Source of the DNA: Bifidobacterium longum subsp. longum JCM 1217
GTDB lineage: Bacteria > Actinomycetota > Actinomycetes > Actinomycetales > Bifidobacteriaceae
Length of the DNA stretch: 32,000 bases
Assembly: GCF_000196555.1 (NCBI RefSeq)
Contig: NC_015067.1
Location: 1,230,001 to 1,262,000, forward strand
Reading direction: 5' to 3'
In this document: piece after piece, positions 1 to 15,522 of the stretch
Position numbering within the stretch: position 1 is the stretch's first letter
Layout of the letters: each line of letters opens with the position of its first letter
Made by a program: the position numbers and the translations under genes
The notes under the pieces: generated by a model
What the model saw: only the letters and a program-made list of their open reading frames with translations
The model's database searches: none
What the model was told of the DNA's origin: nothing

Positions 1-723
1 GCCCGGAAAAAGCCCGAAAACCCTTATATATAAAGGGAAAAACAGAATTCCTTTCTCTTGTATGCATTGTATGCATCAATATAAGGGGTTTCCTTCCTTT
101 TTCTCGAATCCTCTATAAGGGAATGATGCATACAATGCATACACGCCCCCGGACCATCCCCGGAACGTTGGAACCAAGCCGAAACGGGAAGAGAAGATGT
201 ATGCATCCCCGGATGCATACGGATGCATACAGGCCGGCCGGAATGCATACACGGCCCGGGGCCGGCGACCGCCGGCCACCGTTTTGCCGTGAGGGTGCCC
301 CGCCTTTAGGCGTGGGGAGGACGTCAAGCGATCCTCCGATCCGTTTCGCCGGGCTCCCCGGGGGTTCGCGATGCTGTGGAGCCGCATGCGCGGGACCGTG
401 TATGCATTCCGGTTCGCGTGTATGCATTTGTATGCATCCGGGGATGCATACAGAAAAAGCCCGGAAAAAGCCCGAAAACCCTTATATATAAAGGGAAAAA
501 CAGAATTCCTTTCTCTTGTATGCATTGTATGCATCAATATAAGGGGTTTCTTCCCTTTTTCCCGAATCCTCTATAAGGGAATGATGCATACAATGCATAC
601 ACGCCCCCGGACCATCCCCGGAACGTCGGAAACAAGCCGAAACGGAAAGAAAAGATGTATGCATCCCCTGATGCATACGGATGCATACAGCCCGCCCGGA
701 ATGCATACGCGCCCCGGGGCCGG
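1..723. repeat. Non-coding direct repeat. Two ~265-bp copies (1-~265 and 459-~723, 458-bp period, a few mismatches) plus a ~195-bp spacer. Together they carry 20 copies of the 8-mer GTATGCAT/ATGCATAC.
   Basis: Hand alignment of 1-265 against 459-723. Forward motif TGTATGCAT starts at 59, 68, 198, 399, 419, 429, 517, 526, 656. Reverse motif ATGCATAC starts at 126, 135, 213, 223, 243, 444, 584, 593, 671, 681, 701. Phased A-tracts (AAAAAGCCCGGAAAAAGCCCGAAAACCC) and the AT-rich near-palindrome CCCTTATATATAAAGGG sit at each copy start. Copy 1 begins at the window edge, so the array may extend further left. Confidence 0.9.
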
Positions 724-925
724 CATAGCCGCGCCGCATGAACGGCTTGAGACCATACGCGGTCCGGTTCACGGTGTCCGCCTCCCTGTGGATGACGACC
801 ACCGGCGACGAGGTGTGTTTTAGCAAGTTGGCGTCCGCTTTGTGAGCGGTGTTTTTCCGCAGTGTAGGCAGCGGGTTTTCCGCAGGGTGTGCGGTATCGG
901 CCGCTGCCTGTCTGCGTTGTGTTGG

Positions 926-1711
926 TTATTTGGTCATGAGGGCGTGTTCGCTTCGGTAGGAGCGGCCCTCGAATCTGATGAGCCGTCCGTGGTGGACGGT
1001 GCGGTCGATGAGGGCGGCGGCCATGTTCTTGTCGCCGAGCACGCGTCCCCATCCGCTGAATTCGATGTTGGTGGTGTAGATGATGCTCCTTGTCTCGTAG
1101 GAATCGGAAATGATCTGGAAGAGGAGCCTGCTGCCCTCCTCGTCTATGGGCAGGTAGCCGAACTCGTCGATGATGAGAAGTCGGGCCTTGCCGATGCTCG
1201 CGAGTTCCCGGTCGAGCCGGTTCTCCTGCTGGGCGCGGCGCAGACGCATGAGCAGTCCGGTCGCGGTGAAGAAGCGCACCGGGACGCCCCGCTCGCAGGC
1301 GAGCCGTCCGATCGCGATGGCCAGGTGGCTCTTGCCGGTGCCGACGGGCCCGTAGAGCACGAGGTCCTCGCATCCGGCGACGAAGTCGAGGTTCTCGAGC
1401 TGCGCGCGCCCCCAGTCGGCGGGCATCTTCAGGTTGGTCCAGTCATAGCCGTCGAGGGTCTTGTCGGCGGGGAAGCCGGCCTGTTTGAGCAGGCGCAGGC
1501 GTTTGGATCGCTCGCGCGAGTCGAGTTCGGCCGTGAACCATCGTTCGATGAAGTCGAGCTGGTTGGGCGTGGCCTCGGCGAGCGTGCCCGCGAGCACGCT
1601 GCGTGTCAGGGTCAGGCTGCGGCTCATCTTCAGGATCCTCTCGCTCTTCTCGGTCGTGGACGCGCGACGGCGGCGGGTCTCCGGGATCACCGGATCGGGT
1701 CTGACGCTCAC
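926..1711 (-). CDS. istB: IS21-family helper ATPase IstB
   Basis: Walker A GPVGTGKSHLAIA, Walker B LLIIDEFGY, and an IstB-like C-terminus (IYTTNIEFSGWGRVLGD...DRTVHHG). GTG start at 1711 overlaps the istA stop (GTGA). The upstream part of ORF 926..1921 is read-through. Confidence 0.85.
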   Translation of the reverse strand: MSVRPDPVIPETRRRRASTTEKSERILKMSRSLTLTRSVLAGTLAEATPNQLDFIERWFTAELDSRERSKRLRLLKQAGFPADKTLDGYDWTNLKMPADWGRAQLENLDFVAGCEDLVLYGPVGTGKSHLAIAIGRLACERGVPVRFFTATGLLMRLRRAQQENRLDRELASIGKARLLIIDEFGYLPIDEEGSRLLFQIISDSYETRSIIYTTNIEFSGWGRVLGDKNMAAALIDRTVHHGRLIRFEGRSYRSEHALMTK

Positions 1712-3210
1712 CGTTCTTCCCCTCCGTCGTCCGTGCCGGTGATGAACCGGTCGTAGCCGCTCAGGTCGGGCTCCTCGATCCCGCCGGGGTATTCCCACTC
1801 GCCGTCGCGCATGCGCAACGCGATAGGGGTGAGCGAGTCCGCGTGCAGGCCCATGTCCCTGTTCGAGCGCAGGATCTCGCCGCACGCCTGCATCGCGGGA
1901 TCGAACCCGGCCGCCCGGCACGCGTCCCCGATCGCTTTGAGGCTCTCCCTCAACGTCTTTTCGTCCATGGAATCAAGCCACGCGCGTATATCGTCGGGCA
2001 CGTCCGGGCGGATCGAGCTTTCCCGCCACGCGCGGGGTTTGACCGCGAGCCGGGGAAGCACGAGCGCGGGATCCTCCACATTGCGCGACCGTCCGTACTG
2101 TCTGGGATACTCCGCGAAGAGCTCGCCGGTGGCGGGCGAGGTGAGCGTGACCGTGTCCCACCGGATCGCGGCCAATACCCTGGAACGCGCCGAATCGGGG
2201 CCGGCGAGGTACCGGTTCGAGTCGATGTCGACCAGCCCGTACTTGTCGGCCGTCCGGCTTTCCCAGCGAACCGGGTCGAACGCCGTGGACGGCAACGGCA
2301 TCAACGCGGCCCTCTCCTCGTCGAACACCTCGGCCACGGGCACGTCCAGCAACCTCGGGCAATACGAGTCCCTGGCGAGCCCGTCGCACCGCTCCAGCAG
2401 GAGACGGCTCAACTGCCCATACGATTCCGCGCGCATGGGCGGCACCATGAGATTGCGCCGCAAAAACCCGACCGCGTTCTCCACGCTGCCCTTCTCGTTG
2501 CCCGAATACGGGTTGCAGAACCGGACCTCGAGCCGGTAATGCGCCACGAACGCGGAGAACACCCCGGTCAACGCGACCTCGCCCTTCGCGTTGCGCCGGC
2601 CGGCACCGGTCGCGTTGTCCATCACGATCACGGGAGGAACACCCCCGATATGCTCGAACACGAGCATCAGGCCATGGCACAGACACTCCGCGTTCTCGCC
2701 CGGCAACGCCACGCACAACCGCATGTTCGAATACGGCAACGAGACCACCAGGCAATGCACGTCCGCCATCTCGCCAGCGATCCGGGCCCGGGCCACGCCG
2801 AAATCGACCTGCATGCTGCCCGCCGCCCACTCGAGCCGCACGTACCCCTCGCGATCCGGCACGCCGCGGTTCGCCTCGCGCCACCGGTGCACGTAACGCA
2901 TCGTGGTCGAATACTCGCCGTCGTAATCCGTCTCCGCCAGCAGACGGTCGTGCACGCGCCTGATCGTGTGCCGCTGCTTCCTGGGCAGCAGACGATCGGC
3001 CTCCAGCCACTCGTCCACCAGATGCGCGTACGGGTCGATCTTCGACCCGTACCTGCGATCCGCCTTCGGCTTGGGCGAGCAATCCTCCATATCCGCGTAC
3101 TTCGCGACCGTCCCGCGATCCACGTGAAGACGCCGCGCTATCTGCGCGCGCGACATTCCCTGCCGGTCGAGTCTCCTGATATCTTGCACAATGGGCATCG
3201 GTATCGCCAT
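1708..3210 (-). CDS. istA: IS21-family transposase IstA
   Basis: N-terminal HTH (MSRAQIARRLHVDRGTVAKY) and a DDE integrase-core region (SMQVDFG...VVMDNATGAG...). Start taken at the ATG at 3210, preceded by GGAAGGAAAGGAAC. ~500 aa, typical IstA size. Confidence 0.85.
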   Translation of the reverse strand: MAIPMPIVQDIRRLDRQGMSRAQIARRLHVDRGTVAKYADMEDCSPKPKADRRYGSKIDPYAHLVDEWLEADRLLPRKQRHTIRRVHDRLLAETDYDGEYSTTMRYVHRWREANRGVPDREGYVRLEWAAGSMQVDFGVARARIAGEMADVHCLVVSLPYSNMRLCVALPGENAECLCHGLMLVFEHIGGVPPVIVMDNATGAGRRNAKGEVALTGVFSAFVAHYRLEVRFCNPYSGNEKGSVENAVGFLRRNLMVPPMRAESYGQLSRLLLERCDGLARDSYCPRLLDVPVAEVFDEERAALMPLPSTAFDPVRWESRTADKYGLVDIDSNRYLAGPDSARSRVLAAIRWDTVTLTSPATGELFAEYPRQYGRSRNVEDPALVLPRLAVKPRAWRESSIRPDVPDDIRAWLDSMDEKTLRESLKAIGDACRAAGFDPAMQACGEILRSNRDMGLHADSLTPIALRMRDGEWEYPGGIEEPDLSGYDRFITGTDDGGEER

Positions 3211-3411
3211 GTTCCTTTCCTTCCCGAGCGCCGGCCGGCGGCAACCGGCCGAATCAAAACCGATTGGCAACTCGGGAATATACAGGCGGCGGCACCGATG
3301 CCTATCACATCACCGGGAAACGATGACGACACCGGGGAAAACCATCAGCCCACACTACGGAAAAACACTGCCGAACCTGTCGAACAAACATTGAAGCAAA
3401 ACAACGAGGAC

Positions 3412-4161
3412 GTGATCGAACGGAAACGGCGGCGGGGACGCCTGCGCGCCTACGGACGGCAGGTGTGGCGGGAGGCGAAGACCGCGGGCGCGCCCCGGGT
3501 CAACCGGTACATGATGCTCGTCACCGTGGGGGGACGCCCGGAAAGCCCCGTGCTCGCCGCCGAGACCCTGAAGCCCCTGATCGACGCGGGCACGGACGAG
3601 GCCCTGTGGCCGGACGACGACCCGTACCATCGCGTGATGACCTGCTATCTGAGGGATCCCCGCCCCCTGCCGGGCGGCCGGGCGGAACTGTTCATCTGGG
3701 TGATCCCATTGGCCCCCGGCGTCGACCCGCTGGCCCGGCTGCTGGCCCGCGTGCCCGGCTCCAAAGCGACCCTGGCGCGCGCCACGTTCGGCGAGGATTC
3801 GTGGCTGACCAGCAACATGCGCATGACGGCCCGGGAGCGCAAGGCGATGCAGACGCGTGCCATGCGCGCCTGCCAAGGCGCATGGCACGCGAGCCCGGGC
3901 GCCTGCTGCGGCGTCGTCTGCCAGGTCCGCTACCCGGATCCGAGACGCGAATACAAGGGCGATCCGGACAACGTGGCGGAGACGGCGACCGCCATGTGGG
4001 GCGTCGGCGTCATGCAGGGCCTCCTGCCCGCCAGCCCGGGCGTCTTCTGCTTCATGCTCGCCGACGGGGAATCCGAACCGAAGCACCATGATCTCGACAT
4101 GCTCGCGTTCACCGTGCCGTCCGACGCGGACTGGCCCCGCCTGCTGCTCGGGGACGCATAG
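3412..4161 (+). CDS. Hypothetical protein with two tandem RusA-like (Holliday-junction resolvase fold) halves. Start is uncertain: GTG 3412 or ATG 3511. The 5' end may be affected by the IS21 insertion.
   Basis: High GC3 frame. The second half carries a RusA-like acidic motif and context (VRYPDPRREYKGDPDNVAETATAMWGVGVMQGLLP). The first half has the RusA-like C-terminal pattern (LKPLIDAGTDEALWPDDDPYHRV...GGRAELFIWVIP) but lacks the D-x-D-N motif. Assignment is by eye only. Confidence 0.4.
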   Translation: MIERKRRRGRLRAYGRQVWREAKTAGAPRVNRYMMLVTVGGRPESPVLAAETLKPLIDAGTDEALWPDDDPYHRVMTCYLRDPRPLPGGRAELFIWVIPLAPGVDPLARLLARVPGSKATLARATFGEDSWLTSNMRMTARERKAMQTRAMRACQGAWHASPGACCGVVCQVRYPDPRREYKGDPDNVAETATAMWGVGVMQGLLPASPGVFCFMLADGESEPKHHDLDMLAFTVPSDADWPRLLLGDA

Positions 4162-4200: not shown

Positions 4201-5250
4201 ATGGTCATGGACAGGCATAACAGGAGCCACAAGCCGAAGGGCACGCCCGACGGCGGCCGATACGAGGCGAAAAACGGTTCGGCCGGGTCGGATGACGTGG
4301 CCGAACCGTCGGGGGCGGACCCGTCGGCCCGCATCATCGGCTCGCACGAACCCCTCACCGGGGATGACATCGAGTACATTCGCACCGTCTCCGGCCCCGA
4401 CACGATCGGCCTGATGGCCGCCCACCGGCCCGAGGTGGACGCGTGCCTCGCGTCGAATCCGAACCTCACGGAGGATGACGTGGACAGGCTCGTATTCCGG
4501 CAGAAGTCGAATTCGGCACGCGCGGACACGGTGTCCGGCGCCTGCATGCGCCCCGTCATGTCGGACGCGTTCCGCGACCGCTGCGTGGGCTGGATGCGCG
4601 ACCAGACCCCGCGTATCAGGCACGCGGCCATCGACGCGATAGGCTCCAACCCGCACGCGGCTCCCGAACTCGTCAAGGAAAGCCTGTGGGCCGACCCGTG
4701 CATGCGGCAGGCCGTCCGCGTGGCCGCGAACCCGGCGGCGGACGATTCGACGCTCGCCCTCGCCGTCAACATCCACCCGCGCGACAGCAGCGTGTTCGCG
4801 GGCAAGGTGCTCCGCCATCCGCATTGCGGCCCCGACGCGCTGCACGCCATCGACGAGAGGACCACGGACCCGTGGATCCGAGAACGCGTGTGGAGCCATC
4901 CGCGCATGGACATGGCGACGCTCGCCGACTGGAAGAGCCACGTGTCCTACGACCGGTACGAGGCCGCGTTCGGCGCGGCCATGAGCCCGAAGCTCGACTT
5001 CGCGCTCGCCTCAAGCCTTGCATCCTTGAACAATCCGGATGTGGACAGGCGGCTCGCCTACAATCCGAGGACGCCGTCGGAGCTGCTGGGCTCGTTCGCC
5101 GGACGCGGCGACCGTCAGACCGACCTGAACCTGGCCGGCAATCCGAGCCTGCCGTTGGCGAGCCTCAAGGTGCTGCGCGACCGGTATCCGGACGATTCCG
5201 ACATGCATGCCATACTGGCCGGCAATCCGGTCCTGAGCGGCCTGCGCTGA
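4201..5250 (+). CDS. LRV (leucine-rich repeat variant)/HEAT-like repeat protein with a conserved N-terminal MVMDRxNRSHxPKGTPDGGRYE module
   Basis: RBS GGAGGGAGG upstream of the ATG. High GC3. Repeated NP-containing ~25-30 aa units (LASNPNLTEDDV, VAANPAADDSTLALAV, LAYNPRTPSELL, LAGNPSLPLASL, LAGNPVLSGL). Confidence 0.7.
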   Translation: MVMDRHNRSHKPKGTPDGGRYEAKNGSAGSDDVAEPSGADPSARIIGSHEPLTGDDIEYIRTVSGPDTIGLMAAHRPEVDACLASNPNLTEDDVDRLVFRQKSNSARADTVSGACMRPVMSDAFRDRCVGWMRDQTPRIRHAAIDAIGSNPHAAPELVKESLWADPCMRQAVRVAANPAADDSTLALAVNIHPRDSSVFAGKVLRHPHCGPDALHAIDERTTDPWIRERVWSHPRMDMATLADWKSHVSYDRYEAAFGAAMSPKLDFALASSLASLNNPDVDRRLAYNPRTPSELLGSFAGRGDRQTDLNLAGNPSLPLASLKVLRDRYPDDSDMHAILAGNPVLSGLR

Positions 5251-5269
5251 AAAGGAAAGGAAAACCATC

Positions 5270-5728
5270 ATGGTCATGGACAGGAACAACAGGAGCCACA
5301 GGCCGAAGGGAACGCCCGACGGCGGCCGGTACGAGCCGAAGAACGCCGCCGGCGTATCGGGGGATGTGGCCGCGCCCCGGAACACGCCGGACCCGCATGA
5401 TCTGGCCGCGATCTTCGACCGGCCGGACCTGGCCCGCCAAATCGACTTCACGCTCGCGGACGGCAGCCATGTCAACGGGTACGCGATGGACTGCGAACGC
5501 CTCCCCCGCGAGCATGTGCCCGCCGGGTGGCATGTGTACGCGATCATGGAAAGCGAATCCGACGACGACGATCTGGACATCATGACCATCAGGGAGAACA
5601 CGTGGGTGAATCATCGCATGGATTTCGCCACCGACCGGGACCTGACCGGCGTCATCGACGATCCCTCGTTGGAGAACGTGGCGGACTGGGGGTTCACCGA
5701 CCGGACGCTTGCCGACGATCTCGCCTGA
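5270..5728 (+). CDS. Hypothetical acidic protein sharing the N-terminal MVMDRxNRSHxPKGTPDGGRYE module with the preceding gene
   Basis: RBS AAAGGAAAGGAAAA upstream. The first ~75 nt are ~90% identical to 4201-4275 by hand alignment, then unrelated. The C-terminal part (LPREHVPAGWHVYAIMESESDDDDLDIMTIRENTWVNHRMDF) is reminiscent of small domains in conjugative-element polyvalent proteins; this is unverified. Confidence 0.65.
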   Translation: MVMDRNNRSHRPKGTPDGGRYEPKNAAGVSGDVAAPRNTPDPHDLAAIFDRPDLARQIDFTLADGSHVNGYAMDCERLPREHVPAGWHVYAIMESESDDDDLDIMTIRENTWVNHRMDFATDRDLTGVIDDPSLENVADWGFTDRTLADDLA

Positions 5729-5790
5729 TGTCAACGACCGCAATGACGAGCATTGCGGCTTGTCCCTGTCCGGTAGTGCCAATGGAAACC

Positions 5791-5830
5791 GCGACGGCCC
5801 CGCATTCCGGAAGGGAGGCGGGGCCGTCGC
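5791..5830. terminator. Bidirectional stem-loop between convergent genes
   Basis: Perfect 13-bp stem GCGACGGCCCCGC (5791-5803) / GCGGGGCCGTCGC (5818-5830) with a 14-nt loop. It lies between the 3' ends of 5270..5728 (+) and 5864..6154 (-). Confidence 0.6.
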
Positions 5831-5863
5831 GCATGCATTGCGGCCGTGAAGACGCGCCCCGGA

Positions 5864-6154
5864 CTATCCGACCTCATCCCCCATGATCATGTCGAAGAAC
5901 GCGTCCGGATCGTCCACGACCCACACGTGGAAGCCGCGTGTTTCGAGTTTCGCGAACATGGCGCTCTGGCTGGCCCTGGGCTTTCCTCCCGGCCGTTTCA
6001 GTTCCACGAGATACAGCCTGCCGCCGGGCATGAACAGGAGACGGTCGGGCACGCCCAACCGTCCGGGCGACACCCATTTCAGGGACAGTCCCCCATGCCG
6101 TCTCGCCAGCATGTTGAACCGGCGTTCCACCGTGTTCTCCCTCACCGCCGCCAT
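5864..6154 (-). CDS. VRR-NUC domain (PD-(D/E)xK) nuclease
   Basis: Motifs GVPDRLLF ... LYLVELKRPGGKPRASQSAMFAKLETRGFHVWVV match the VRR-NUC pattern G-x-PD ... E-x-K ... Q. Strong RBS GGAGGGGG upstream of the ATG at 6154. Confidence 0.8.
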   Translation of the reverse strand: MAAVRENTVERRFNMLARRHGGLSLKWVSPGRLGVPDRLLFMPGGRLYLVELKRPGGKPRASQSAMFAKLETRGFHVWVVDDPDAFFDMIMGDEVG

Positions 6155-6561
6155 CCGAACCCCCTCCGCGCGTCCGGCCCGTCCGGCTCGACGGGGAGCA
6201 TGCGGATCAGGCGCGCCCGTTCCGGGAAGCCGGCCGCCTCCAGGACGCGCGCATCCAAGTCCGTGCCGAGCACGCGCAGCGTCTCCGCGTCCAGATCGGT
6301 CCGGGTCGCGAGCACGCGGCGCACGCGCGCATCCCGGTCATGGGCGAGCGTGGACATCAGCGCCGCGTCCAGGCCGGGCCGGGCGGCCACGCGGGCGCGC
6401 ACGCAGGCCGCCGGATCATCCGCCAGACGTTCCACGACACGGTCGGGCAGCGGCATGCCCGCCGCATGCGCGCGCACCACCGGATTCGGGTCGAACGCGG
6501 CCCGACGCGCGTCCCCCGACCCGTCCAGCAGGGCCAGGACCCTGTCATGCCAATCATCCAT
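6142..6561 (-). CDS. LRV/HEAT-like repeat protein, translationally coupled to the downstream VRR-NUC gene
   Basis: Repeats of the type DPNPVVRAHAA / DDPAACVRARVAARPGLDAALMSTLAHDRDARVRRVLA. Start chosen at the ATG at 6561 (GGGG RBS) rather than 6600. Its 3' end overlaps the VRR-NUC start by 13 nt. Confidence 0.6.
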   Translation of the reverse strand: MDDWHDRVLALLDGSGDARRAAFDPNPVVRAHAAGMPLPDRVVERLADDPAACVRARVAARPGLDAALMSTLAHDRDARVRRVLATRTDLDAETLRVLGTDLDARVLEAAGFPERARLIRMLPVEPDGPDARRGFGWRR

Positions 6562-6656
6562 GCCCCATCGTATGCGTTGCGCGGTTGCGCATAGACGCAT
6601 TCCGACGCGTGCGGGGCCGGTTCCAGGCCCGCACGACGATTCGGAAAAGGAGAACC

Positions 6657-9068
6657 ATGGACAAACGAATCAGCAGGACCCTGGCCGCGACGCTCGCCGC
6701 GGCCACCCTGGCCGGCGGGACGGCCGCACCCGTCTGGGCCGACCAGCCGACGGCGGGCGGGGCGGCGACCCGCACCGGACAGCGCGCGCCCATCGCCGGC
6801 CTGGCCGGCGTGACGGCCCGGTGGAGGGACGCGCAAGGCGGCACCGGCCCCGTCACGGGATTCGATCCGGCCAACGGGAGGGGAGGCGACGTGCCCGCCG
6901 GCACGACCGCGGTCACCCTTGACGGCCTGCCCGACGGATGGACCCAATCCGTCTCCAAGGACGATCCGCTGACCGTCACCCTCGCCGCGCCCGATCAGGC
7001 CCAGTCCCGCACCTACACGTTCCGCGCCGTGTCCGCCGCCGACCGGTTCAGGGAATCATTGAAGAAGGCCGAAACGATCCGCGACGACAGGGACGCGACG
7101 GACGCGTACGACCGGGCGAGCCTCGACGCGCTCGGCAAGGCGATCGGCGACGCGGGGAAACTGGACGCGGACACCGCCGGCGACCAGATGCTCGCCAAGG
7201 CCGCGGACGGCCTCGACCAGGCGGTCGCGGGCCTGCGCGTCGTCAACTGGACGTTCCACGGCCAGACCCTCGCCTACGACGTCGCGTCGAAGACGTGGAC
7301 GCCCGCCACCCCGTTGGGCCAGGCGCCCGGCACGGACGAGAAGATCACGGGCGGCAGCACGTCCAACCGGATCGAAGTGTCGACCACGGCCTCCGCACCC
7401 GACGTCAGGAACACGCTGGCCGGCGTCACCGAAACGGATCAGGTCCTGACCGCGTCCCACGGCGGCGAATCGTTCCGCATCCCCATACGCATCGTCCAGG
7501 GCACGGAGATCACGTTGAAGGACGGGACCCGTTTCACCGGTTCGGAGAACGGCTCCGAATGGACCGTCACCGACACCGGCCACCGGCTCGACAAGGACAA
7601 CATGCCCGACACGGACAAGGTGGAACTGTCCGACGGATCGACGCTCCCCGTCGCCTGGGGCAAGGCCACGCTCGACCCGTCGGGCGCGGCCGGCCCCGTA
7701 TGGACCATGAGCGGGAAGGCCACGCGCACGCTCGACAACGGGCAGACGCTCACGGTGAACCTGACCGCCAGCCGCGCCTGGGACGCGAAACTCAGCATCG
7801 GCGTGGAGCATCGGACCGCCGACGGGAACACGACCCTCATCCCCGGCGTCGACCTGGAGGACGCGACCGCCGCGGACACCCCGTTGGACGTGACCCTGCC
7901 CACGCTCCCCTACGCCGCGGCCGGCGACCAGTACGCGCCCGCCGTGACCGGCGGCGACGACGCGACGGTCACGTTGAAACCCACCGGGCTCGGCGATGAC
8001 GGGATGCGCGTGTTCACCGGCACCGTCAAGGCGACCAGGACGGACGGCACCATCGTGACCCGCAGGTTCACGATCCGCCAGCCGTTCGACAAGCCGTCCA
8101 GGACCGTCGGCGCGCCGGACGCCGCACTGGACGGGCTGCTCGTCAACGGCCAGCCCATCCAAGGGTGGGATCCCGACATCCTCGAATACACGATCACCGC
8201 GGGCGAGGACGACAAGGTCACGGTCAGTCCCAGGGCGAAGGCCGGGCAGACGGTGAAGGCGTCCGACACGACCCTGACCGCGCACAGCACCGTCCAGCAT
8301 TGGACGGTGACCGGGCCGGACGGCGGGAACCGTACGTACACGGTCACGCTCGTCCGCGACCACAGGACCCCCACCGCGGACGAGGCGTTCAAACCCTCCG
8401 ATCCGAAGGACACGGGCGGCACCCGGGAGGCTCCCGGCCCGGACACGGCCACGCTGAAAAGCGTCGGCTGGACGAAGGACGGCACGTACCACGCGGAGAA
8501 GGGCGACGAATACCTGATCCCGGAGGGCGGCTCGTTCGCCTACGAATCGTACCTGGGCCAGATCGTGAAGATCACGCCGGGCCGCGACCACGGCATGACG
8601 TGGAAATACCGGATCGGGGTGCTCGCCCCCGACGGCGTCACCTACCGGACGCGTACCGTCACGGTCACCTACCTGACGGAGGCGACCCACAGGGCGGGCC
8701 TGACCGGGTTGAGTGTCGACGGGCGCGACGTGGACGGGTTCTCGCCGGACAGGCTCGAATACACGGTCGGGGTCGCCAACCCGGAACGCTACGTGGTCAC
8801 CCCGTCGTGGGACAAGCAGACGGGCATGAGCGTCACCAAGCATGTGGACGGCGCGGACACGACGCTCACCGTGACCAGCGCCGACGGGCTGACGTCCGTC
8901 GTCTACAGGGTGCACGTCGAATACGATGCGGGGCTCGCCGCCACCGGCGCGGGCGTGACGGGCGTGATCATGATCGCCGTCGCCGCCGTCCTGGCGGCCG
9001 CCGGCACATGGTTCGCGTCCCGGCATAAGCCGCATGATCCGGACGGGGACACGGACGCGACCATGTGA
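6657..9068 (+). CDS. Cell-wall-anchored surface protein with cadherin-like beta-sandwich repeats and an LAXTG-type sorting signal
   Basis: RBS AAAGGAGAACC. Signal peptide MDKRISRTLAATLAAATLAGGTAAPVWA/DQ. Two repeats of the type L(D/T)GL.V.G..(I/V).G(W/F).PD.LEYT(I/V) ... Y.V.(L/V). C-terminus is LAATG + hydrophobic helix + RHK tail. The upstream part of ORF 5883..9068 is rejected because it overlaps minus-strand genes. Confidence 0.8.
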   Translation: MDKRISRTLAATLAAATLAGGTAAPVWADQPTAGGAATRTGQRAPIAGLAGVTARWRDAQGGTGPVTGFDPANGRGGDVPAGTTAVTLDGLPDGWTQSVSKDDPLTVTLAAPDQAQSRTYTFRAVSAADRFRESLKKAETIRDDRDATDAYDRASLDALGKAIGDAGKLDADTAGDQMLAKAADGLDQAVAGLRVVNWTFHGQTLAYDVASKTWTPATPLGQAPGTDEKITGGSTSNRIEVSTTASAPDVRNTLAGVTETDQVLTASHGGESFRIPIRIVQGTEITLKDGTRFTGSENGSEWTVTDTGHRLDKDNMPDTDKVELSDGSTLPVAWGKATLDPSGAAGPVWTMSGKATRTLDNGQTLTVNLTASRAWDAKLSIGVEHRTADGNTTLIPGVDLEDATAADTPLDVTLPTLPYAAAGDQYAPAVTGGDDATVTLKPTGLGDDGMRVFTGTVKATRTDGTIVTRRFTIRQPFDKPSRTVGAPDAALDGLLVNGQPIQGWDPDILEYTITAGEDDKVTVSPRAKAGQTVKASDTTLTAHSTVQHWTVTGPDGGNRTYTVTLVRDHRTPTADEAFKPSDPKDTGGTREAPGPDTATLKSVGWTKDGTYHAEKGDEYLIPEGGSFAYESYLGQIVKITPGRDHGMTWKYRIGVLAPDGVTYRTRTVTVTYLTEATHRAGLTGLSVDGRDVDGFSPDRLEYTVGVANPERYVVTPSWDKQTGMSVTKHVDGADTTLTVTSADGLTSVVYRVHVEYDAGLAATGAGVTGVIMIAVAAVLAAAGTWFASRHKPHDPDGDTDATM

Positions 9069-9081
9069 TCCGGATACCCAT

Positions 9082-9143
9082 ACGCGCGGGAAGGCCGGAT
9101 GCGGGGGGCGCGTGTTCTCCCCGCATCCGGCCTTCCCGCGCGT
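9082..9143 (+). terminator. Long perfect hairpin immediately after the surface-protein gene
   Basis: 25-bp arms ACGCGCGGGAAGGCCGGATGCGGGG (9082-9106) / CCCCGCATCCGGCCTTCCCGCGCGT (9119-9143) with a 12-nt loop. No T-tract. Confidence 0.6.
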
Positions 9144-9365
9144 ATGTTCACACTGTTGGTCAAACAGGGCGGTATCCGTTATGAGGTGACACCGGGTGGT
9201 CAGAAGGTATACGATCCGCATGAGATCGACCGGTACATGGCCGAACGTCAAGGCAAGCCGATCCCCGAGGGGAAGCTCGTGTTCTATGTGCGTGACAGTG
9301 AGGGGAACATCGTTCGCATGAACACGCAGGTGGAACGGTTGACGGTCGCATACGGCAAGCCGGTG
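9144..9365 (+). pseudogene. Decayed fragment resembling the N-terminus of a MerR-HTH + small serine recombinase (IS607/resolvase-like)
   Basis: The pattern GIRYEVTPGGQKVYDPHEIDRYMAER ... KLVFYVRDSEGNIVRMNTQVERLTVAYGKP resembles the '...TPGGHRRY...' HTH tail followed by a 'YARVSSxxQ' catalytic-serine segment. The first HTH helix and everything after ~75 aa are missing. This stretch is locally lower in GC than the rest of the island. Confidence 0.35.
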
Positions 9366-9516
9366 AGGGGCCGGCATCCTTCCACTCCCAAGGACTACCA
9401 GGAGTGGCGACGGCGACTATCCGGAATAAAAGGAAGCAGACAACCACCGTCACACTACGGGCCAGCGTTGCCATGCAGTTATGGCAGGAACCACAACTAC
9501 CTCATCCCGAATAACC

Positions 9517-9798
9517 CTAGGCGGCCGGGTCGAGGGCCGCGGCCCGCCTGGTGGCGAGCATGCCCGCACGGCACATGATCGACGCCTGGGCGGGCGTCAG
9601 GCCGCCGCCGAACCGTCCCATGAGACGGAACGCGTCCTCCATTAGAATCCGGTCCGTTCCGGGCAGTGTTTCCAGGCATCTGGCGGCGCGGGCGAACACT
9701 TCCGCATCATGCTCCAGCATGGCGTACGCGTCCATCATGCGCGTCCCGCCCTCACGGCTGATGCTCTCCGCCGCGCGATCCCAATCCATTCCGGTCAT
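9517..9798 (-). CDS. Small hypothetical protein (93 aa) downstream of the Replic_Relax-like gene
   Basis: High GC3 ORF. GGGGG RBS-like stretch upstream of the ATG at 9798. Co-directional with and 36 nt from the upstream gene. No recognisable motif. Confidence 0.45.
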   Translation of the reverse strand: MTGMDWDRAAESISREGGTRMMDAYAMLEHDAEVFARAARCLETLPGTDRILMEDAFRLMGRFGGGLTPAQASIMCRAGMLATRRAAALDPAA

Positions 9799-9834
9799 GC
9801 CCCCGTATATGCGTTCCGGCCACCCGCCTGTCGC

Positions 9835-10821
9835 TCAGCCATGCCAATGCCCGCGCATGCGCTCCGGCAGCCGCCATGAGGCGGCGTTCGGCAGGCCGAA
9901 CACGCGGCCGAGCCTGTCCATGTCATGTCCCGTCCACCCGTCCAGGGGGACGGGAATGCCGGGTGAGGGCGTCCACCCGTCCGTCATGAAACCGCCGGCC
10001 ATGACGGACGCCGCGTCGCCCGCATGCTGGCGGGAGCGTGCCGCGCACAAGCCGTCCAACCGTTCCAGGATCCCCGTGTTCCCGTCGCCGCGGCCGGCCG
10101 ACAGCCACAGGACATGCGTGTTCCGGCAGGCCGGATGGTCGAGCACCCTGTCCCACCGGCGGAACTTCGTCTCCAATGACTGTCCGGTGGACGCGGTCAG
10201 TTCCACGCATACGAGCAGGCCCTCGCCGATGAGCGCCAGATCGGGGCCGCCATGGCCCATGATCGGATCATCGCAGATCCGGTCGAACCGGCACCACGCC
10301 TCCCCCGCGGTCAGCCACCCGTCGCGCCGGGCGCGGATGGCGAGCCCCGTGCAGATCAGGTTGTGCCGGTCGTACTGGCGTTGCCCGCGCAAAGGGCCCG
10401 GCCCGATGTCCGCGATCTCGACGGGCGTGAGGCCCAGCCGGCGCAGTTCCGGGTCGATCGCGTGGTGGACGGGCAGGCGGACGGCCATGAAGCCCGCGCT
10501 TTTCGGCCCCCATCCGCCGCGCCCGTTCACGTTGATGGGGAAGCCCAGGTCGATGAGGCGCATGCCGGCGAGCATCATCCACAGCGTGGACCGCGGGTCG
10601 GCGGGCAGCCGCGGGTCGAGCTCGTGGAGTTGGCTTGTCTCGCAGGTCCTGTGCGAGCGGATGAGCGCGAGCGCCGCCCCCGTGACGGGGGCATGCCGTT
10701 CCAGCCATGCGAGCGCCCTCTCCCGGTCGGGGAGCCATGCGGGAGGGTCGGCCACGCGGCTGTCCCACCAGTTGAGGGCCGATCCCGCCGACCACCATGA
10801 TTCGTCGAAAGCGTCGAACAT
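9835..10821 (-). CDS. Replication-relaxation (Replic_Relax)-like winged-helix protein; tentative
   Basis: N-terminal wHTH-like segment (AALALIRSHRTCETSQLHELD...LWMMLAGMRLIDL), a central H-x-L segment (YDRHNLICTGLAIRA), and a PD-(D/E)xK-like GPDLALIGEGLLVCVELT. By eye only. Confidence 0.4.
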   Translation of the reverse strand: MFDAFDESWWSAGSALNWWDSRVADPPAWLPDRERALAWLERHAPVTGAALALIRSHRTCETSQLHELDPRLPADPRSTLWMMLAGMRLIDLGFPINVNGRGGWGPKSAGFMAVRLPVHHAIDPELRRLGLTPVEIADIGPGPLRGQRQYDRHNLICTGLAIRARRDGWLTAGEAWCRFDRICDDPIMGHGGPDLALIGEGLLVCVELTASTGQSLETKFRRWDRVLDHPACRNTHVLWLSAGRGDGNTGILERLDGLCAARSRQHAGDAASVMAGGFMTDGWTPSPGIPVPLDGWTGHDMDRLGRVFGLPNAASWRLPERMRGHWHG

Positions 10822-10931
10822 GACGGCCGGCTATGCGGGTCGTCCGCGTACGGCGTGTCGCCTTGCGCCGGCCGGGATGCGGGGTGGTGGCGAAACGCAT
10901 GGTATGTGTCCCGGGACGCATACGCGCCCGC

Positions 10932-11969
10932 ATGTCAGACGATAACCTCGCATGCACTCCCGCGCAATGGGAGCGGATCATCAGCCGATACGCCGACCCG
11001 GCCCGGTCGAACTCGCCGGCGGGCCGGGTCGCCGCCCTGCTGCGCGACGACGCGCGCGCCTCCGACCTGGTGCGCGAATGGGTCGAGGACCAGGCCATGC
11101 GATGCATGGCGAAGGGGCAGACGGTCACGCCCACGCTGCTGACCATGATCTGCAAACGGTGCAGCAAGGAGGCGATCCTCCACAGGGAGCTGGGCGTGAG
11201 CGTCAAACTGCTGCGCGCCGGCGCCGCCTATGAGAAACGTCTCGCCGAATACCGTAACGATCATGCGTCCGCCCACCCCTCCCGGCCGGTCAGGGAACGC
11301 CTGTGGGACGAGGCGGTGGACGCGCATATCCATGGTCAGATGGAGCGCGGCGTGAGCAGCATGGTGTTCCTGCCCTACCATGACGGGCGCAACTCGCATC
11401 CGGGCTCGTCGAACCTGCTCGCATGCGGCGGCCTGCCGGAATGGGAGGCGCTGTTCGGATCGAAGCGGCGTCGTTTCGCCCCGTTGGAGGATGTGGACGA
11501 GGATCATGATCCGGCGCTCATGGACCATACGGGCGGCATGCCGTTCGAGGTGACCGCGGAATGGCTCGAACGGCATGGGATCACGCCCGCCATGCTGAAC
11601 CGTCTGACCGACACGGATCTGGCCGTATTGGGCGTGGACGTCAGGTCCGCGCGCCTCGAATCCGCGGGCGGCGTCCTGGACGGGGTGGCGGGCCGCCTCG
11701 ACCTCATATTGGACGATCCGCGGGCGAGCCAGGCCCTGGCGGCCGGCCGGCCGATGCTGGGGGCCGTGGAGATCCTCCACTCGCTGGGCATGGATGTGGG
11801 CATGATCCGGGCGGGCATGCGGCTCGGCCGCTGGTCGCGGGCCGGGGACGTGCACGATCCGGGCATGCTGCGCGCCGCATGGGACCGGATCCCGGGCCGT
11901 GGGGGCACGTACGACGAGTATCTGCGCGCCGTGTCCGACATTCTCGACAAGGCCCACGCCCTCGCATAG
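10932..11969 (+). CDS. Hypothetical protein (345 aa). Start is uncertain (ATG 10932 or 10899).
   Basis: Long high-GC3 ORF, divergent from 9835..10821 and first of three co-directional genes. No recognisable domain. Confidence 0.55.
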   Translation: MSDDNLACTPAQWERIISRYADPARSNSPAGRVAALLRDDARASDLVREWVEDQAMRCMAKGQTVTPTLLTMICKRCSKEAILHRELGVSVKLLRAGAAYEKRLAEYRNDHASAHPSRPVRERLWDEAVDAHIHGQMERGVSSMVFLPYHDGRNSHPGSSNLLACGGLPEWEALFGSKRRRFAPLEDVDEDHDPALMDHTGGMPFEVTAEWLERHGITPAMLNRLTDTDLAVLGVDVRSARLESAGGVLDGVAGRLDLILDDPRASQALAAGRPMLGAVEILHSLGMDVGMIRAGMRLGRWSRAGDVHDPGMLRAAWDRIPGRGGTYDEYLRAVSDILDKAHALA

Positions 11970-12012
11970 CGAGGCGATGAACGTTGTTTTCCCGAGGGAA
12001 AGGAGACCGGTC

Positions 12013-12525
12013 ATGACCGTTGACGCGCATGGGAGAAGCCACAGGCCGTCCGGACTGCCCCAAGGGTATGCGGGCACGTATGACGGGGGCACGGGCGCGT
12101 CCGGGGGCATGGACGTGACGCCGCCCTCCTCCTATTACGACGGGCGCATGGGCGAGGCGGAACGCGCCGACCGGCCGACCGGCACGTGCCAGCGTCCACC
12201 CTCCGAAACCTCGCATGCAGGACAATTGCGCCGTCTTCTGGGCGACGATCCGGTCGAGGGAAGCGTTTCGAGCGTCGCCGGATCGTACCCGGGCCCGAAC
12301 GCGCGCCTGTACGCTGACTTCGTGCGTCATCCGCGCCGCCGCACCTACACGCTGGAGGGCGAGACCATGACCCGCTCCCAGGCCCGCGACTACGCGCGCG
12401 GCATGCTCGTCGAATCGGCGCGCAACGATGCCGGGGCGTGGGGCGACGGGTATGATCCGGACGCCATGGCCGAACAGGCAGGCGACTGGTTCGACAGGAC
12501 ATATCCCATGCCGAAACGACGTTGA
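12013..12525 (+). CDS. Hypothetical protein with an N-terminal RSHRPSGLPQG module related to those at 4201 and 5270
   Basis: RBS GGGAAAGGAGACC upstream of the ATG at 12013. N-terminus is MTVDAHGRSHRPSGLPQGYAGTYDGG. Confidence 0.6.
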   Translation: MTVDAHGRSHRPSGLPQGYAGTYDGGTGASGGMDVTPPSSYYDGRMGEAERADRPTGTCQRPPSETSHAGQLRRLLGDDPVEGSVSSVAGSYPGPNARLYADFVRHPRRRTYTLEGETMTRSQARDYARGMLVESARNDAGAWGDGYDPDAMAEQAGDWFDRTYPMPKRR

Positions 12526-12565
12526 CGGAGATCCATGACGGAGGGAAACGGTATCATGGGCGACC

Positions 12566-13519
12566 GTGACCGGATTCATACTGATCTTTGCCCTACTGTT
12601 CCTTCTCGGCATGATCGCCCTGCCGTTCATCCCCGTCATCGCGATCATCCTCCAGCGTCGGCATAACAGGAAACGCGCGCAAGGAGGCGTGTTCGTCTCG
12701 CATCGGAGCGAATACGCGAACATGGAGCCTTCGCCCGCGGACGTGGCGCACGTCGCCGCACGATACGGGATAATGCCCGATGCGCGTGGATGGATGGGAT
12801 GGCGGTGCGTGACGCATGATGCGGGCGGCATGGGGGACAACATCCGCGGGGTCGCCGCGACCGTGGATCTGAACGGCTTGGCGACATATGGGCTTGTGCG
12901 CGGCGTGCCCGGCTCGGGTCTGGAAGACTCCTCGTTCACCGCGGATCAGATAGGCGCGGGCATATGGGGGGAAAGCCTGCTGGCCCGCGCGATCATGGCC
13001 GGCCGGCCGCGAGTCTTGTCATGGTGGAGCCTGTACGGTTTCGACGAATGCCTGCGCCTGTCGGACAGTGACATCGACTGCGTGCTGGTCGGGATTCGTC
13101 CCGACGGCAGGCCTGTCGCATGGTTCGTCGACGCGAAACGGTACAAGGGCGGTTCGGACACGAGTTACGTGAATGTGGATGCGTGGCATCTGGCGCGCGT
13201 CAGCCGGGCGAGACGCGCGTTCGTGCTTGACTCCGCGGGCCGCGCGTGGACATCGATGAGCCCGAACATGTGGGAGCAGCGGGAACGGTGGCAGGGTCTG
13301 CTGGCCCGATACGGCGTCGTATCGTATTGGGTGGTGTGCGTGACCCCGCCGGGCGGGCATGGGACCCCCGATATGACCACTGCCGTATGGCCGGGTGGCG
13401 TGACCTGCATGGACATACCATCGCTTCGCGCGATGATCGATTCCGTGTGTGTTCCGGACATGTTCGCCGCGATCCCGCCCGGACTGGTCTCCCTGCTTGA
13501 TTCGCATATCAAATATTAA
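12566..13519 (+). CDS. Membrane-anchored NERD (nuclease-related) domain protein
   Basis: GTG start. N-terminal TM helix FILIFALLFLLGMIALPFIPVIAIIL followed by the basic stretch QRRHNRKR. NERD-like motifs: WGESLLARAI ... DSDIDCVLVG ... VAWFVDAKRYKGG ... SPNMWEQRERW. Confidence 0.6.
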   Translation: MTGFILIFALLFLLGMIALPFIPVIAIILQRRHNRKRAQGGVFVSHRSEYANMEPSPADVAHVAARYGIMPDARGWMGWRCVTHDAGGMGDNIRGVAATVDLNGLATYGLVRGVPGSGLEDSSFTADQIGAGIWGESLLARAIMAGRPRVLSWWSLYGFDECLRLSDSDIDCVLVGIRPDGRPVAWFVDAKRYKGGSDTSYVNVDAWHLARVSRARRAFVLDSAGRAWTSMSPNMWEQRERWQGLLARYGVVSYWVVCVTPPGGHGTPDMTTAVWPGGVTCMDIPSLRAMIDSVCVPDMFAAIPPGLVSLLDSHIKY

Positions 13520-14903
13520 CGCCCGCCGTCTCTCCTTCCAATGCGTCCATGACCGCCTCGTGCAGCATCATGCGGCCGGTCAATACGTCGAGCTTGCGAC
13601 GGTCCACGGTGTTCGACTCCAATAACCGGTGGACGCGCACCGTCCTTTTCTGCCCCTGACGGTGTAATCGGTCGCATGCCTGACGGTAGTCGTCGAACGA
13701 CCAGGGCAGGCTGGTCCACACGATCTCGTGTCCCCCGTCCTGGATGTTCAGCCCGTATTTCGCGGCCTGGGGGTGGGCGGCCAGGAGCGGGACGCGGCCG
13801 TTGCGCCATTCCTCCAGCACGCCTTGCTCATGCACCTCGCGCATGCCGGGGAAGCGTGCGCGCATGCGCTCCAATTCGTCGGTGAACTGGTAGAACACGA
13901 GCACCGGGCCGTCCGCCGCTGATATGATGTCCGCCAACGCGTCGAGCTTCACGTCGTCCACGTGCCGGATCGTCCCTTCCGGATCGTCCGCGTCCGGGTA
14001 CAGGCAGCCGCACGTCAGTTGGGCCAGCTTCGCGGTCAGGACGCCCGCGTTGGCGACGGTGACGGTCGTCCCGTCATCCAGGTCGGCGACCATCTGCCGA
14101 CGCAGCCGGTCGTACGTGTCCCGGGTCGGTTTCGGCATGTCGAGCCAATGGTCGGTCTCGATCAGGGACGGGAGTCCGGGCAGTTTGTCGCTTGCCTTCA
14201 TGGAGAGGCAGAACGGTTCGATGAGGTCGAGGATCTCCTGTTGGGCGCCGTCGCGGGGCGTGTAGTCGATGGGCTGCCGGCGGCCGCCCATGTCGATGTA
14301 CCGGGTGGGCGTGAACCAGCGTTCCCGGTAGCGGGTCATGGACCGTTCCAACGTTTCGGACCGGTCGATGACCGCGATTTCGCCCCACAGGTCCAATAGG
14401 TTTTTGGTGGCGGGCGTGCCGGTCAGTCCGAGCGCCCAACGGGCCTTCCTCGCATGACGGCGCAATACGAGCCCCCGGTTGGAGCGGGGCGTCTTGTAGC
14501 CGGACAGTTCGTCCACGACGAGGCCCGTCCACGGCCAGTCCCCCACCTTCCCGTCCAGCCATTTGAGGTTGTCCTGCCCGATGACGGTCACGTCCGCGCC
14601 GGCGTCCAGCGCCTGCGACCGTTGCCGCGGCGTGCCGACGGCGACCGCCCAGGTCAGGGAGTGCATGCCCTTCCAGCGTTCGAGCTCGTCGGGCCACGAG
14701 TTGCGGGCCACCAATGCGGGCGCTATGACGAGGAACCGGGCGTGCGGGTCGGCCGCGTGCATGATGTCCATGACGGCGATGCTGGTCAGCGTCTTGCCGA
14801 GCCCGGGTTCGAGGAACAGGCCGCATCCGCGGGACGGGGAGGCGAACGCCTTCAGGGCGAACCGGATGGCCTGTTTCTGGTAGTCGTGCAATGGGGTTTC
14901 CAT
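13509..14903 (-). CDS. SNF2-family (phage/ICE-type) DNA helicase/translocase
   Basis: Motif I LEPGLGKT, motif II VVDELSGYK, motif III LGLTGTPATKN, and C-terminal helicase motifs (LLAAHPQAAKYGLNIQDGG, CDRLHRQGQKRTV). Its 3' end overlaps the NERD gene by 11 bp in convergent orientation. Confidence 0.85.
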   Translation of the reverse strand: METPLHDYQKQAIRFALKAFASPSRGCGLFLEPGLGKTLTSIAVMDIMHAADPHARFLVIAPALVARNSWPDELERWKGMHSLTWAVAVGTPRQRSQALDAGADVTVIGQDNLKWLDGKVGDWPWTGLVVDELSGYKTPRSNRGLVLRRHARKARWALGLTGTPATKNLLDLWGEIAVIDRSETLERSMTRYRERWFTPTRYIDMGGRRQPIDYTPRDGAQQEILDLIEPFCLSMKASDKLPGLPSLIETDHWLDMPKPTRDTYDRLRRQMVADLDDGTTVTVANAGVLTAKLAQLTCGCLYPDADDPEGTIRHVDDVKLDALADIISAADGPVLVFYQFTDELERMRARFPGMREVHEQGVLEEWRNGRVPLLAAHPQAAKYGLNIQDGGHEIVWTSLPWSFDDYRQACDRLHRQGQKRTVRVHRLLESNTVDRRKLDVLTGRMMLHEAVMDALEGETAGVNI

Positions 14904-14976
14904 GCACGCGCGTATGCGTCAGAACCGGGACGCATATGACGGGTTCGGTGGAGGACGTCCGGAAAGGGGTTCCGTC

Positions 14977-15225: not shown

Positions 15226-15327
15226 CGTATGGCGTCCGTCCGCCTCCGGACGCGGGTCCCGGACGTCCTTTGCGGGAAACGCATATCCATGGGTGTCCAT
15301 CGTGTTTCCCGTCGTAAGGAGCCTGAC

Positions 15328-15522
15328 ATGGCCGACAAGCCGTTCGTCCCCGTCGAGCATCGTCTCGCGCTGACCGTCCCCGAGGCGGCGGCCCTGTGCG
15401 GCATTCCGGAGAAGGTGGTGCGCGCCGCGGTCGTGCACGGCGATCTGAGGCATTTCGAGAAGGGGTCCACGACCGCCAGGATCCGCAGGTCGGATCTGGA
15501 GGATTGGGTGGCCTTGCTGTGA
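15328..15522 (+). CDS. Excisionase/AlpA-type helix-turn-helix DNA-binding protein
   Basis: RBS AAGGAG. LTVPEAAALCGIPEKVVRAAVVHGDLR...ARIRRSDLEDWV matches the Xis-family HTH pattern. It is the last GC-rich gene before the compositional drop. Confidence 0.6.
   Translation: MADKPFVPVEHRLALTVPEAAALCGIPEKVVRAAVVHGDLRHFEKGSTTARIRRSDLEDWVALL

Follow-up and report, generated by a model that had tools for sequence, protein, structure and literature searches.

A dispersed twelve-site module, amplified in tandem in a mobile element of Bifidobacterium longum, as a candidate binding array for an element-encoded transcription factor

The 32-kb stretch of Bifidobacterium longum DNA whose first lines are given above (the window) begins inside a dense array of the octamer GTATGCAT, which lies in an integrated mobile element. 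The array may, with a probability that we put at about 0.5, be the binding array of a global transcription factor encoded by that element. It consists of 3.7 tandem units of 458 bp, amplified from a composite predicted binding module of ~340 bp that recurs at operon heads. A first-pass annotation, made from the letters of the window, had taken the array for a cis-acting locus of a mobile island, such as an iteron origin, a centromere or a clt- or oriT-like transfer site. The first part of that view stands, in that the array is non-coding, of a protein-binding type, part of a mobile element and under constraint at the octamers. The module is dispersed, which does not suit a single iteron origin, oriT or clt.

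Anatomy, distribution and conservation of the module

The window holds 20 GTATGCAT sites, counting both strands, and all of them fall within positions 60-708. Dinucleotide-preserving shuffles gave a mean of 0.56 sites per 32-kb window and a maximum of 4. Every position that the first-pass annotation had listed is correct, and so is its 458-bp direct repeat (1-266 compared to 459-724, 95% identical). The A-tracts, the near-palindrome CCCTTATATATAAAGGG, the repeated TATAAGGG and the sequence TTGTAT-N16-TATAAG are also present as it described them, but the last of these, which it had called promoter-like, fails a simple sigma-70 consensus scan. Open reading frames (ORFs) called over positions 1-826 had been dismissed as artefacts. 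They lack the codon-position bias in guanine-plus-cytosine (GC) content, in contrast to the real genes of the window, which bears out the dismissal and rules out a coding reading of the array. Rfam returned no family over the array, either at gathering thresholds for the whole window or in E-value mode for 1-830. Only the chromosomal tRNA-Pro reaches its gathering score, and 1-830 gives nothing beyond sub-threshold matches to miRNA hairpins. Neither an ORF signal nor a known non-coding RNA was found over the array.

Further copies had been suspected upstream of the window edge, and they are there. Window protein 4201-5250 led to CP065209.1 (locus L004, where the window position is the L004 position minus 5800) and to a second assembly (L006); in CP065209.1, 958 bp of array lie past the edge. 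CP065209 is B. longum subsp. longum BB-46 (PMC10057886, PMC8660834). The full array in this strain (L004 4842-6524, or window -958 to 724) has a period of 458, 3.7 copies with 97% matches, 47 GTATGCAT sites and four cores.

In each 458-bp repeat a ~340-bp module is joined to a 115-bp spacer, and the pair has been amplified in tandem. The unit at 383-724 is found elsewhere as single dispersed copies, and it aligns at 90-97% to loci L021, L025, L028, L032, L036, L045 and L050. Each module has 11-13 GTATGCAT octamers arranged in a fixed, mirror-like way about an AT-rich core, with arm sites 10 and 20 bp apart, core sites 9 bp apart and phased A-tracts on both sides of the core. It reads as a B' arm, a linker, the core, a second linker and a B arm (Table 1). 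The B' arm is the inverted partner of the B arm, both arms being 65-70 nt long and 80-84% complementary. In the core, the inverted pairs TGTATGCATTGTATGCATCA / TGATGCATACAATGCATACA are 100% complementary across a 45-nt core; the centre holds two TATAAGGG sequences, its 20-nt arms are 100% complementary, and the core hairpin has a z-score of -7.8. By the site coordinates the right linker is 10 bp shorter than the left one, which is highly conserved over the 44 aligned copies described below. At other loci the right half of the spacer (328-382) adjoins the B' arms of single modules and forms the 5' region of a minus-strand gene there.

The module family is dispersed, strictly within one family of large conjugative-type mobile elements of B. 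longum. A scan of IMG/VR for the site dimer found the full arrangement in seven places, six of them on the 186,745-bp contig IMGVR_UViG_2687453622_000001 (five of the six in one orientation) and the seventh on a 43-kb contig. A second scan, using the arm pattern, returned the same seven modules and no further ones. Among human-gut metagenome contigs, 38 stretches match the strict paired pattern, with several per contig. The module is absent from 185,579 species-representative genomes, where one pattern scan gave 0 matches and the other gave 13 chance matches in unrelated taxa. It is also absent from the plasmids of PLSDB, in which a distant blastn search matched a 52-nt element of the spacer only, and phage records gave no module match. 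The idea of one special locus of the island has therefore to be given up: there are six modules on one 186.7-kb contig, and oriented copies lie mostly between divergent gene starts. The first-pass annotation had also named a dispersed repeat family unlinked to mobile elements as an outcome that would speak against it. The repeat is indeed dispersed, but it is not unlinked to mobile elements, all of its copies lying inside one element family. The host element is distantly related to the pMP7017 megaplasmids (its large AAA_10 ATPase is 32% identical over 98% of its length). It bears markers of the type IV secretion system (T4SS) kind, namely the AAA_10 ATPase and a CHAP/lysozyme hydrolase, and most of its genes are without family assignment.

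The 44 distinct module copies that were aligned are 81-100% identical pairwise. The octamers make up 88 columns, of which 87 are invariant, and only 1 of their 3872 cells varies. Elsewhere in the module, 116 of 211 columns are invariant and 692 of 9284 cells (7.5%) vary; the difference in invariant columns gives a Fisher p = 6e-17. The search pattern imposed four of the eleven aligned sites, and the remaining seven are equally invariant. A diverged module type in L108 (9560-9850 and 10310-10590) has altered surroundings but keeps the octamer, with GGTATGC(A/G)T sites at ~10-bp spacing. The two L108 modules lie upstream of gene starts and have a different AT-rich centre with a single ATGCATACAATGCATAC pair. 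As far as an alignment can tell, the constraint on the octamers is the pattern expected of sites that a sequence-specific DNA-binding protein recognises.

The module also folds as single-stranded DNA (ssDNA) at -92 kcal/mol, with a z-score of ~-10 on either strand. It might for this reason be taken for a long ssDNA hairpin or cruciform, for example an Frpo-like single-strand promoter that would fire early genes after conjugative entry. The genes beside the modules (methylases, ssDNA-binding protein, nucleases) resemble those of plasmid leading regions, and the shared orientation of five of the six modules on the largest contig would also agree with such a role. We nevertheless hold it to be very improbable. 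The variable positions of the arm spacers vary independently and mostly in ways that break pairing (pair 418/693 is G-C in 15 copies, G-G in 13 and A-C in 12, and pair 411/697 is T-C in 35), and there are no compensatory changes among them. Selection is therefore on the sequence of the sites and not on the hairpin, which would in any case not need twelve copies of the same octamer. An RNA or ssDNA structure under selection was accordingly ruled out as the leading explanation.

At the locus occupied by the BB-46 array, between a 110-aa gene and the RusA-like gene A, the number of modules is one in L050 and L085, two in L094 and L097, and four in BB-46. Because this locus carries 1, 2 or 4 modules depending on the sample, the array is a recent, variable tandem amplification, which would have arisen by unequal recombination between modules. 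The flanking genes are reassorted between copies; the 110-aa gene, for example, is paired via the module with three different right-hand genes. Recombination apparently takes place at the modules, with the result that operons are reshuffled and tandem arrays arise.

Dispersed copies with such identities and with inverted arms of 65-70 nt would also be seen in a selfish or neutral repeat, similar to a miniature inverted-repeat transposable element, that accumulates in intergenic DNA, and IS607/TnpB elements do lie nearby in two loci. Very little weight can be given to this explanation. The flanks are without target-site duplications or sharp common ends, the left end occurs in at least two forms, and the constraint is concentrated on the octamers. 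Moreover, the orientation of the copies is consistent relative to the flanking gene starts and the repeat is absent outside the element family.

The 52-nt element CCACCGTTTTGCCGTGAGGGTGCCCCGCCTTTAGGCGTGGGGAGGACGTCAA of the spacer (…GTGAGGGTGCCCCGCCTTTAGGCGTGGGGAGGACGTCAA) has isolated intergenic copies, 94-96% identical, on five pMP7017-type B. longum megaplasmids. Its fold is no better than that of shuffled sequences, and a structured RNA was ruled out on this ground. It could be a terminator or insulator of the kind without a U-tract.

A related octamer at gene starts

The octamer GACGCATAC, which differs by one base from the array's GATGCATAC, sits just before many start codons. Across the module-bearing loci ACGCATAC occurs 140 times, compared to ~11 expected. 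An ATG lies exactly 8 nt downstream in 26 of 93 distinct contexts, where ~1.5 would be expected, and when the ATG is at 6-8 nt it opens an ORF of at least 51 codons in 32 of 35 cases. After near-identical sequences were collapsed, GACGCATAC was found 8 nt upstream of the ATG at no fewer than 30 different gene starts. A same-strand upstream ORF ends nearby at only 5 of 42 gene-start sites, so most of these sites are the heads of transcription units. Back-to-back pairs of the form GTATGCGTC-N10-12-GACGCATAC are frequent between divergent start codons. The gene-start signal is absent from the chromosomal parts and from the pMP7017-type plasmid loci that were examined. A homologous gene block is found in the module-free contigs L129-L131, and there the first gene has an ordinary ribosome-binding site; the family member in the module-bearing element has GACGCATAC-N8-ATG instead. 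The sequence GACGCATAC-N8-ATG may be an element-specific, leaderless promoter or operator signal.

A small gene downstream of one module (L128 7328-7660) has a homologue in the module-free L129 (7459-7670) that also has an ordinary ribosome-binding site. Downstream of the module-bearing L128 copy stands a duplicated piece of the C-terminus of the other version, a scar left by recombination.

The modules themselves are placed in a regular way with respect to genes. For this comparison genes were called by codon-position GC and not by curated annotation, and all copies were put in one orientation. In most oriented copies a plus-strand ORF starts ~14-26 nt past the B arm and a minus-strand ORF leaves the B' arm. 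The two-sided cases are divergent in 18 of 25 instances by our count, and convergent in one. The gene-start signal lies 18-32 nt past the last perfect site in 17 of 33 distinct B-side flanks, and it is present in 11 of 37 distinct B'-side flanks. A palindrome, TTTACAATATTGTAAA, is present as 1-3 copies, 31 bp apart, immediately outside the B' arm, and 38 of its 39 occurrences in 411 kb are within 201 bp of a module core. It lies at L004 4774-4820, just left of the window, as well as in L021, L025, L032, L050 and many metagenome loci, and it is probably the operator of a second regulator.

A short site thus recurs at many promoter regions of one element and is absent from species-representative genomes, as would be expected of a dispersed operator regulon. 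One element-encoded factor, or two related ones, would recognise GAYGCATAC and govern transcription of the element. Ribbon-helix-helix (RHH) proteins such as MetJ, omega, ParG and CopG bind short tandem or inverted sub-sites about one helical turn apart, and the factor would most likely be a small dimeric RHH repressor. It would load cooperatively on the 12 sites, which are spaced mostly by about one helical turn. Once bound, it would wrap or loop the A-tract-bent DNA and occupy the promoter-proximal sites, and the flanking operons would thereby stay silent until transfer or induction. A candidate only for this factor is an Arc-like or RHH-like protein of 83 aa that is encoded ~160-200 nt downstream of the module in several loci (Pfam RHH_10, E 0.0065; PHROG Arc-like, E 5e-4). 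A sequence search of the PDB gave nothing significant for this protein or for the 110-aa protein.

Several observations weigh against an operator array of this kind. The 83-aa candidate is below curated thresholds and adjoins only some of the modules. Because the module copies are closely related, the counts based on them are not fully independent. The perfect ATGCATAC occurs only inside modules and ACGCATAC at gene starts, and because of this partition two different proteins could be involved. Promoter-like sites are not enriched in 1-830 (1 compared to 0.8 expected in the sigma-70 consensus scan), and the sequences, read directly, show no TANNNT-type -10 from the motif to the ATG. In view of these last two results, the putative factor may repress, activate or itself be a promoter-specificity factor.

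The last of these possibilities can be taken further, although we think it unlikely as a whole. The mobile element would then have a private transcription system with the octamer family as its promoter-specificity element, in which GACGCATAC at -16 to -9 directs initiation at the A of the ATG and yields leaderless mRNAs with no host-type -10. The reader would be an unrecognised sigma-like factor or RNA polymerase encoded among the large proteins without family. The 12-site modules would be hubs, similar to enhancers or sinks, at which this factor is concentrated or sequestered, and an amplified array in an integrated remnant such as that of BB-46 would titrate the factor of incoming relatives.

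Neighbouring genes and the proteins they might supply

The flanks of the modules include a PIF1 helicase gene heading an operon with a 1382-aa AAA_10 ATPase, an RNase T-like exonuclease, an RNA ligase, an N6-methylase preceded by the 83-aa Arc-like protein, and the RusA-like gene A. NCBIfam was uninformative for the key proteins apart from a P4-type primase domain. Within 5 kb of the modules and in the ~112 kb examined of the 186,745-bp contig, no partition (ParA/ParB/ParM/TubZ), replication-initiator, relaxase, integrase, sigma or RNA polymerase family was recognised. A Rep, ParA/ParB or relaxase gene beside the array, as would have suited the first-pass annotation, was thus not found within 5 kb of any module. 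An oriT is not supported, there being no relaxase family near any module in these regions and the module being multi-copy.

The modules might instead be centromere arrays of the parS/parC type, bound by an RHH protein and possibly doubling as operators, as with omega of pSM19035 and KorB of RK2. Short direct and inverted repeats flank a promoter-like AT core, as they do in parC of R1, there are several arrays per large replicon, and the 83-aa Arc/RHH-like gene beside some modules encodes a basic N-terminal tail. However, no ParA-, ParM- or TubZ-type gene was found in the regions just named, and the RHH gene is followed by a methylase and not by an NTPase. Partition would also leave unexplained why the related octamer keeps a fixed N8 distance from start codons. 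A centromere role is on balance doubtful.

A replication role is somewhat less probable still. The octamers would be iterons for a P4-family primase-helicase (PrimPol), the AT core would be an unwinding element, and the extra modules would resemble the crr of P4 or act as copy-control sinks. The P4 alpha protein binds octamer iterons at two separate loci. The module has octamers in inverted order around an AT-rich, A-tract-bent core, so that iteron-like sites do flank an AT-rich element. In several loci the gene of an 847-aa PrimPol, which has a P4-family primase C-terminal domain in NCBIfam, starts 57 nt from the B' arm. Yet there are six equivalent modules per element, most of them beside genes unrelated to replication, where an origin would be a single locus at a rep gene; the neighbours at the window locus are the 110-aa gene and the RusA-like gene. 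The varying number of modules at that locus (1, 2, 4) and the relation to the gene-start motif are likewise not accounted for by an origin. In the related megaplasmid pMP7017, moreover, the iterons are 20-mers for RepB and lie at one origin (PMC8313286).

To the left of the BB-46 array lies a divergent minus-strand operon that encodes the 110-aa protein, a RlaP/nucleotidyltransferase-like protein and a DEAD-type helicase. Farther left, ~3.7 kb from the module, is the gene of a 1063-aa ATPase that is FtsK/SpoIIIE-like by PHROG. This protein (L050 2050-5241; its C-terminal end is L004 1-1153) shows P-loop similarity and has a LAGLIDADG-type, intein-like insert. Its presence raises the prospect of a clt-like array, read as an 8-bp motif by an FtsK/TraB-type translocase during transfer of double-stranded DNA, and the motif does have the length of the TRS, KOPS and SRS motifs. 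This prospect is a remote one. Neither an Ftsk_gamma nor a winged-helix domain was detected in the ATPase, the sites occur in both orientations, and only one of six dispersed modules lies near the ATPase gene. The T4SS-type markers of the element also speak against it.

To the right of the array is gene A, of which the intact form has 275 aa (PHROG RusA-like, E 3.5e-5). In BB-46 it is cut by an IS21-family insertion sequence (IS) with IstA at ~1708-3210 and IstB at ~926-1711, and the 6-bp target duplication ACGAGG is at 808-813 and 3404-3409; L050 has the uninterrupted site. In a related strain, CP049767.1 (L003 9150-9215), the array and everything to the left of it are missing. There a chromosomal peptidyl-prolyl isomerase gene with its terminator abuts a 29-bp remnant of the IS21 end, which is followed by the rest of gene A. 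The arrangement looks like an IS-associated deletion of the element's left part. Relatives of a 1018-aa neighbour protein are encoded on thirteen other contigs with no motif; that region is probably shared cargo and was set aside as uninformative.

The island proteins at 4201-13519 are mostly without family assignment. For the ORF at 9835-10821(-), labelled Replic_Relax-like in the first-pass annotation, we found no support, as there was no Pfam match even at E<=1 and no PHROG match. GC content drops from ~0.67 to ~0.60 near 15.6 kb, just past an HTH_17 (Xis-like) gene at 15229-15522. The genes from ~15.6 kb onward are chromosomal and include a HAD hydrolase, RbpA, a DEAD/DSHCT helicase, UDP-glucose pyrophosphorylase and tRNA-Pro(GGG) at 23993-24068(-). 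No integrase was seen in the part of the island within the window.

Table 1. Positions in the window of the array, its parts, the adjoining genes and the gene-start signals
Feature	Position	Strand	Remarks
Window part of the 458-bp tandem array	1..724	.	1.6 of 3.7 units; 20 of 47 GTATGCAT sites
115-bp spacer between tandem modules	268..382	.	right half (328-382) also beside B' arms of single modules elsewhere
52-nt element CCACCGTTTTGCCGTGAGGGTGCCCCGCCTTTAGGCGTGGGGAGGACGTCAA	276..327	.	within the spacer between modules
Complete ~340-bp module	383..724	+	B' arm, A-tract linker, core, linker, B arm
B' arm	383..452	+	sites 400(+), 420(+), 430(+), 444(-); start-to-start spacings 20 and 10 bp
Left linker	453..516	+	phased A-tracts AAAAAGCCCGG/AAAAAGCCCG/AAAACCC and AT palindrome CCCTTATATATAAAGGG; repeated at 1-58
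Core	517..601	+	abutting sites 518+, 527+; 45-nt AT-richer centre; abutting sites 584-, 593-; repeated at 59-143
Right linker	602..655	+	GGAAACAAGCCGAAACGGAAAGAAAAGA, A-runs ~10-11 bp apart; repeated at 144-197
B arm	656..724	+	sites 657(+), 671(-), 681(-), 701(-); repeated at 198-266
Gene A, 5' end	738..813	+	served by the array's right-hand end; intact copy L050 9337-10164
IS21-family element	814..3403	-	Pfam IstB_IS21 and rve; terminal inverted repeats
Gene A, remainder	3410..4161	+	downstream of the IS
ACGCATAC-N8-ATG	6559..6577	-	ATG 6561, 139-aa ORF
Variant ACGCATTC-N6-GTG	6595..6611	+	6609, 819-aa ORF; back to back with the 6559-6577(-) signal
Variant ACGCATAT-N8-ATG	9796..9814	-	ATG 9798, 93-aa ORF
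ACGCATAC-N8-ATG	10916..10934	+	ATG 10932, opens 345-aa ORF
ACGCATAC-N8-ATG	14901..14919	-	ATG 14903, SNF2-type helicase gene (13509-14903)

Significance and comparison with known systems

B. longum is a key commensal of the infant and adult gut, and its large mobile elements are poorly understood. The array is present in the probiotic strain BB-46 and in LMG 13197 (assembly JGYZ), which we take to be the type strain of B. longum subsp. longum. A conserved octamer at 12-site modules and at 30 or more gene starts offers a direct handle on the element's presumed master regulator. Element-specific, perhaps leaderless, expression signals could possibly be of use as genetic tools, the genus being difficult to engineer, and recombination between modules bears on the genome stability of production strains. 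In the open literature the octamer, its dimers, the palindrome TTTACAATATTGTAAA and ACGCATAC matched only primers and unrelated sequences, and no earlier account of the array was found there.

Some likeness is seen to single-locus systems. In ParR-parC of R1, a promoter core lies between two blocks of short direct repeats, and the DNA is bent when the protein binds cooperatively; parC is, however, a single locus upstream of parMR, whereas the modules described here are multiple and have no partition NTPase in the regions examined. Phage P4 has octamer iterons, direct and inverted, at separate loci that are bound by the alpha protein, and a P4-family primase gene lies beside one type of module. 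P4 has two such loci compared to six or more here, and its iterons are not known to be related to gene starts. The TraB-clt system of Streptomyces plasmids shares a repeated 8-bp motif (TRS) and an FtsK-like ATPase gene in the neighbourhood, but clt is a single locus next to traB, with repeats that are mostly direct. The modules described here are dispersed and mirror-symmetric, and no gamma or winged helix-turn-helix domain was detected in the ATPase.

The omega arrays of pSM19035 and other inc18 plasmids come nearer, with 7-bp repeats, head-to-tail and head-to-head, forming arrays of 7-10 that lie at several promoters of a single plasmid. Omega is a small RHH dimer with a flexible N-terminal tail that binds cooperatively, and its sites are both operator and centromere. 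In contrast, the unit here is 8-9 bp, spaced by 9, 10 or 20 bp in three clusters that span ~320 bp and are joined by bent linkers. At least six modules are present, and no delta/ParA partner was found in the regions examined. KorB-OB of RK2, the stoperators of mycobacteriophage L5 and the CIR sites of phiC31 follow a comparable plan, in which one protein of the element reads a dozen or more short sites, many of them near promoters, and brings about global silencing. Those are single sites, whereas perfect sites here occur only in 12-site modules and the promoter-proximal ones are the one-mismatch variant 8 nt from the ATG.

A distant relative of the element, pMP7017, has a 34-bp motif of its own at 19 promoters. 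That motif is plasmid-specific, absent from chromosomes and precedes genes that include ones for defence and for replication/repair, and it is thus also an element-specific promoter motif of a large conjugative Bifidobacterium element (PMC10832533). It is unrelated in sequence, lies as a single copy over a normal -10, is followed by a 5' untranslated region and a ribosome-binding site, and forms no multi-site module.

The closest parallels in logic are these dispersed operator regulons of mobile elements (omega, KorB, L5, phiC31 and pMP7017). What sets the present system apart from them is a rigid, mirror-symmetric module of 12 sites over ~320 bp with bent linkers. It is further distinguished by the strict partition between perfect sites, which are confined to modules, and a one-mismatch variant exactly 8 nt from start codons, and by modules that apparently act as recombination points, reshuffling operons and producing tandem arrays.

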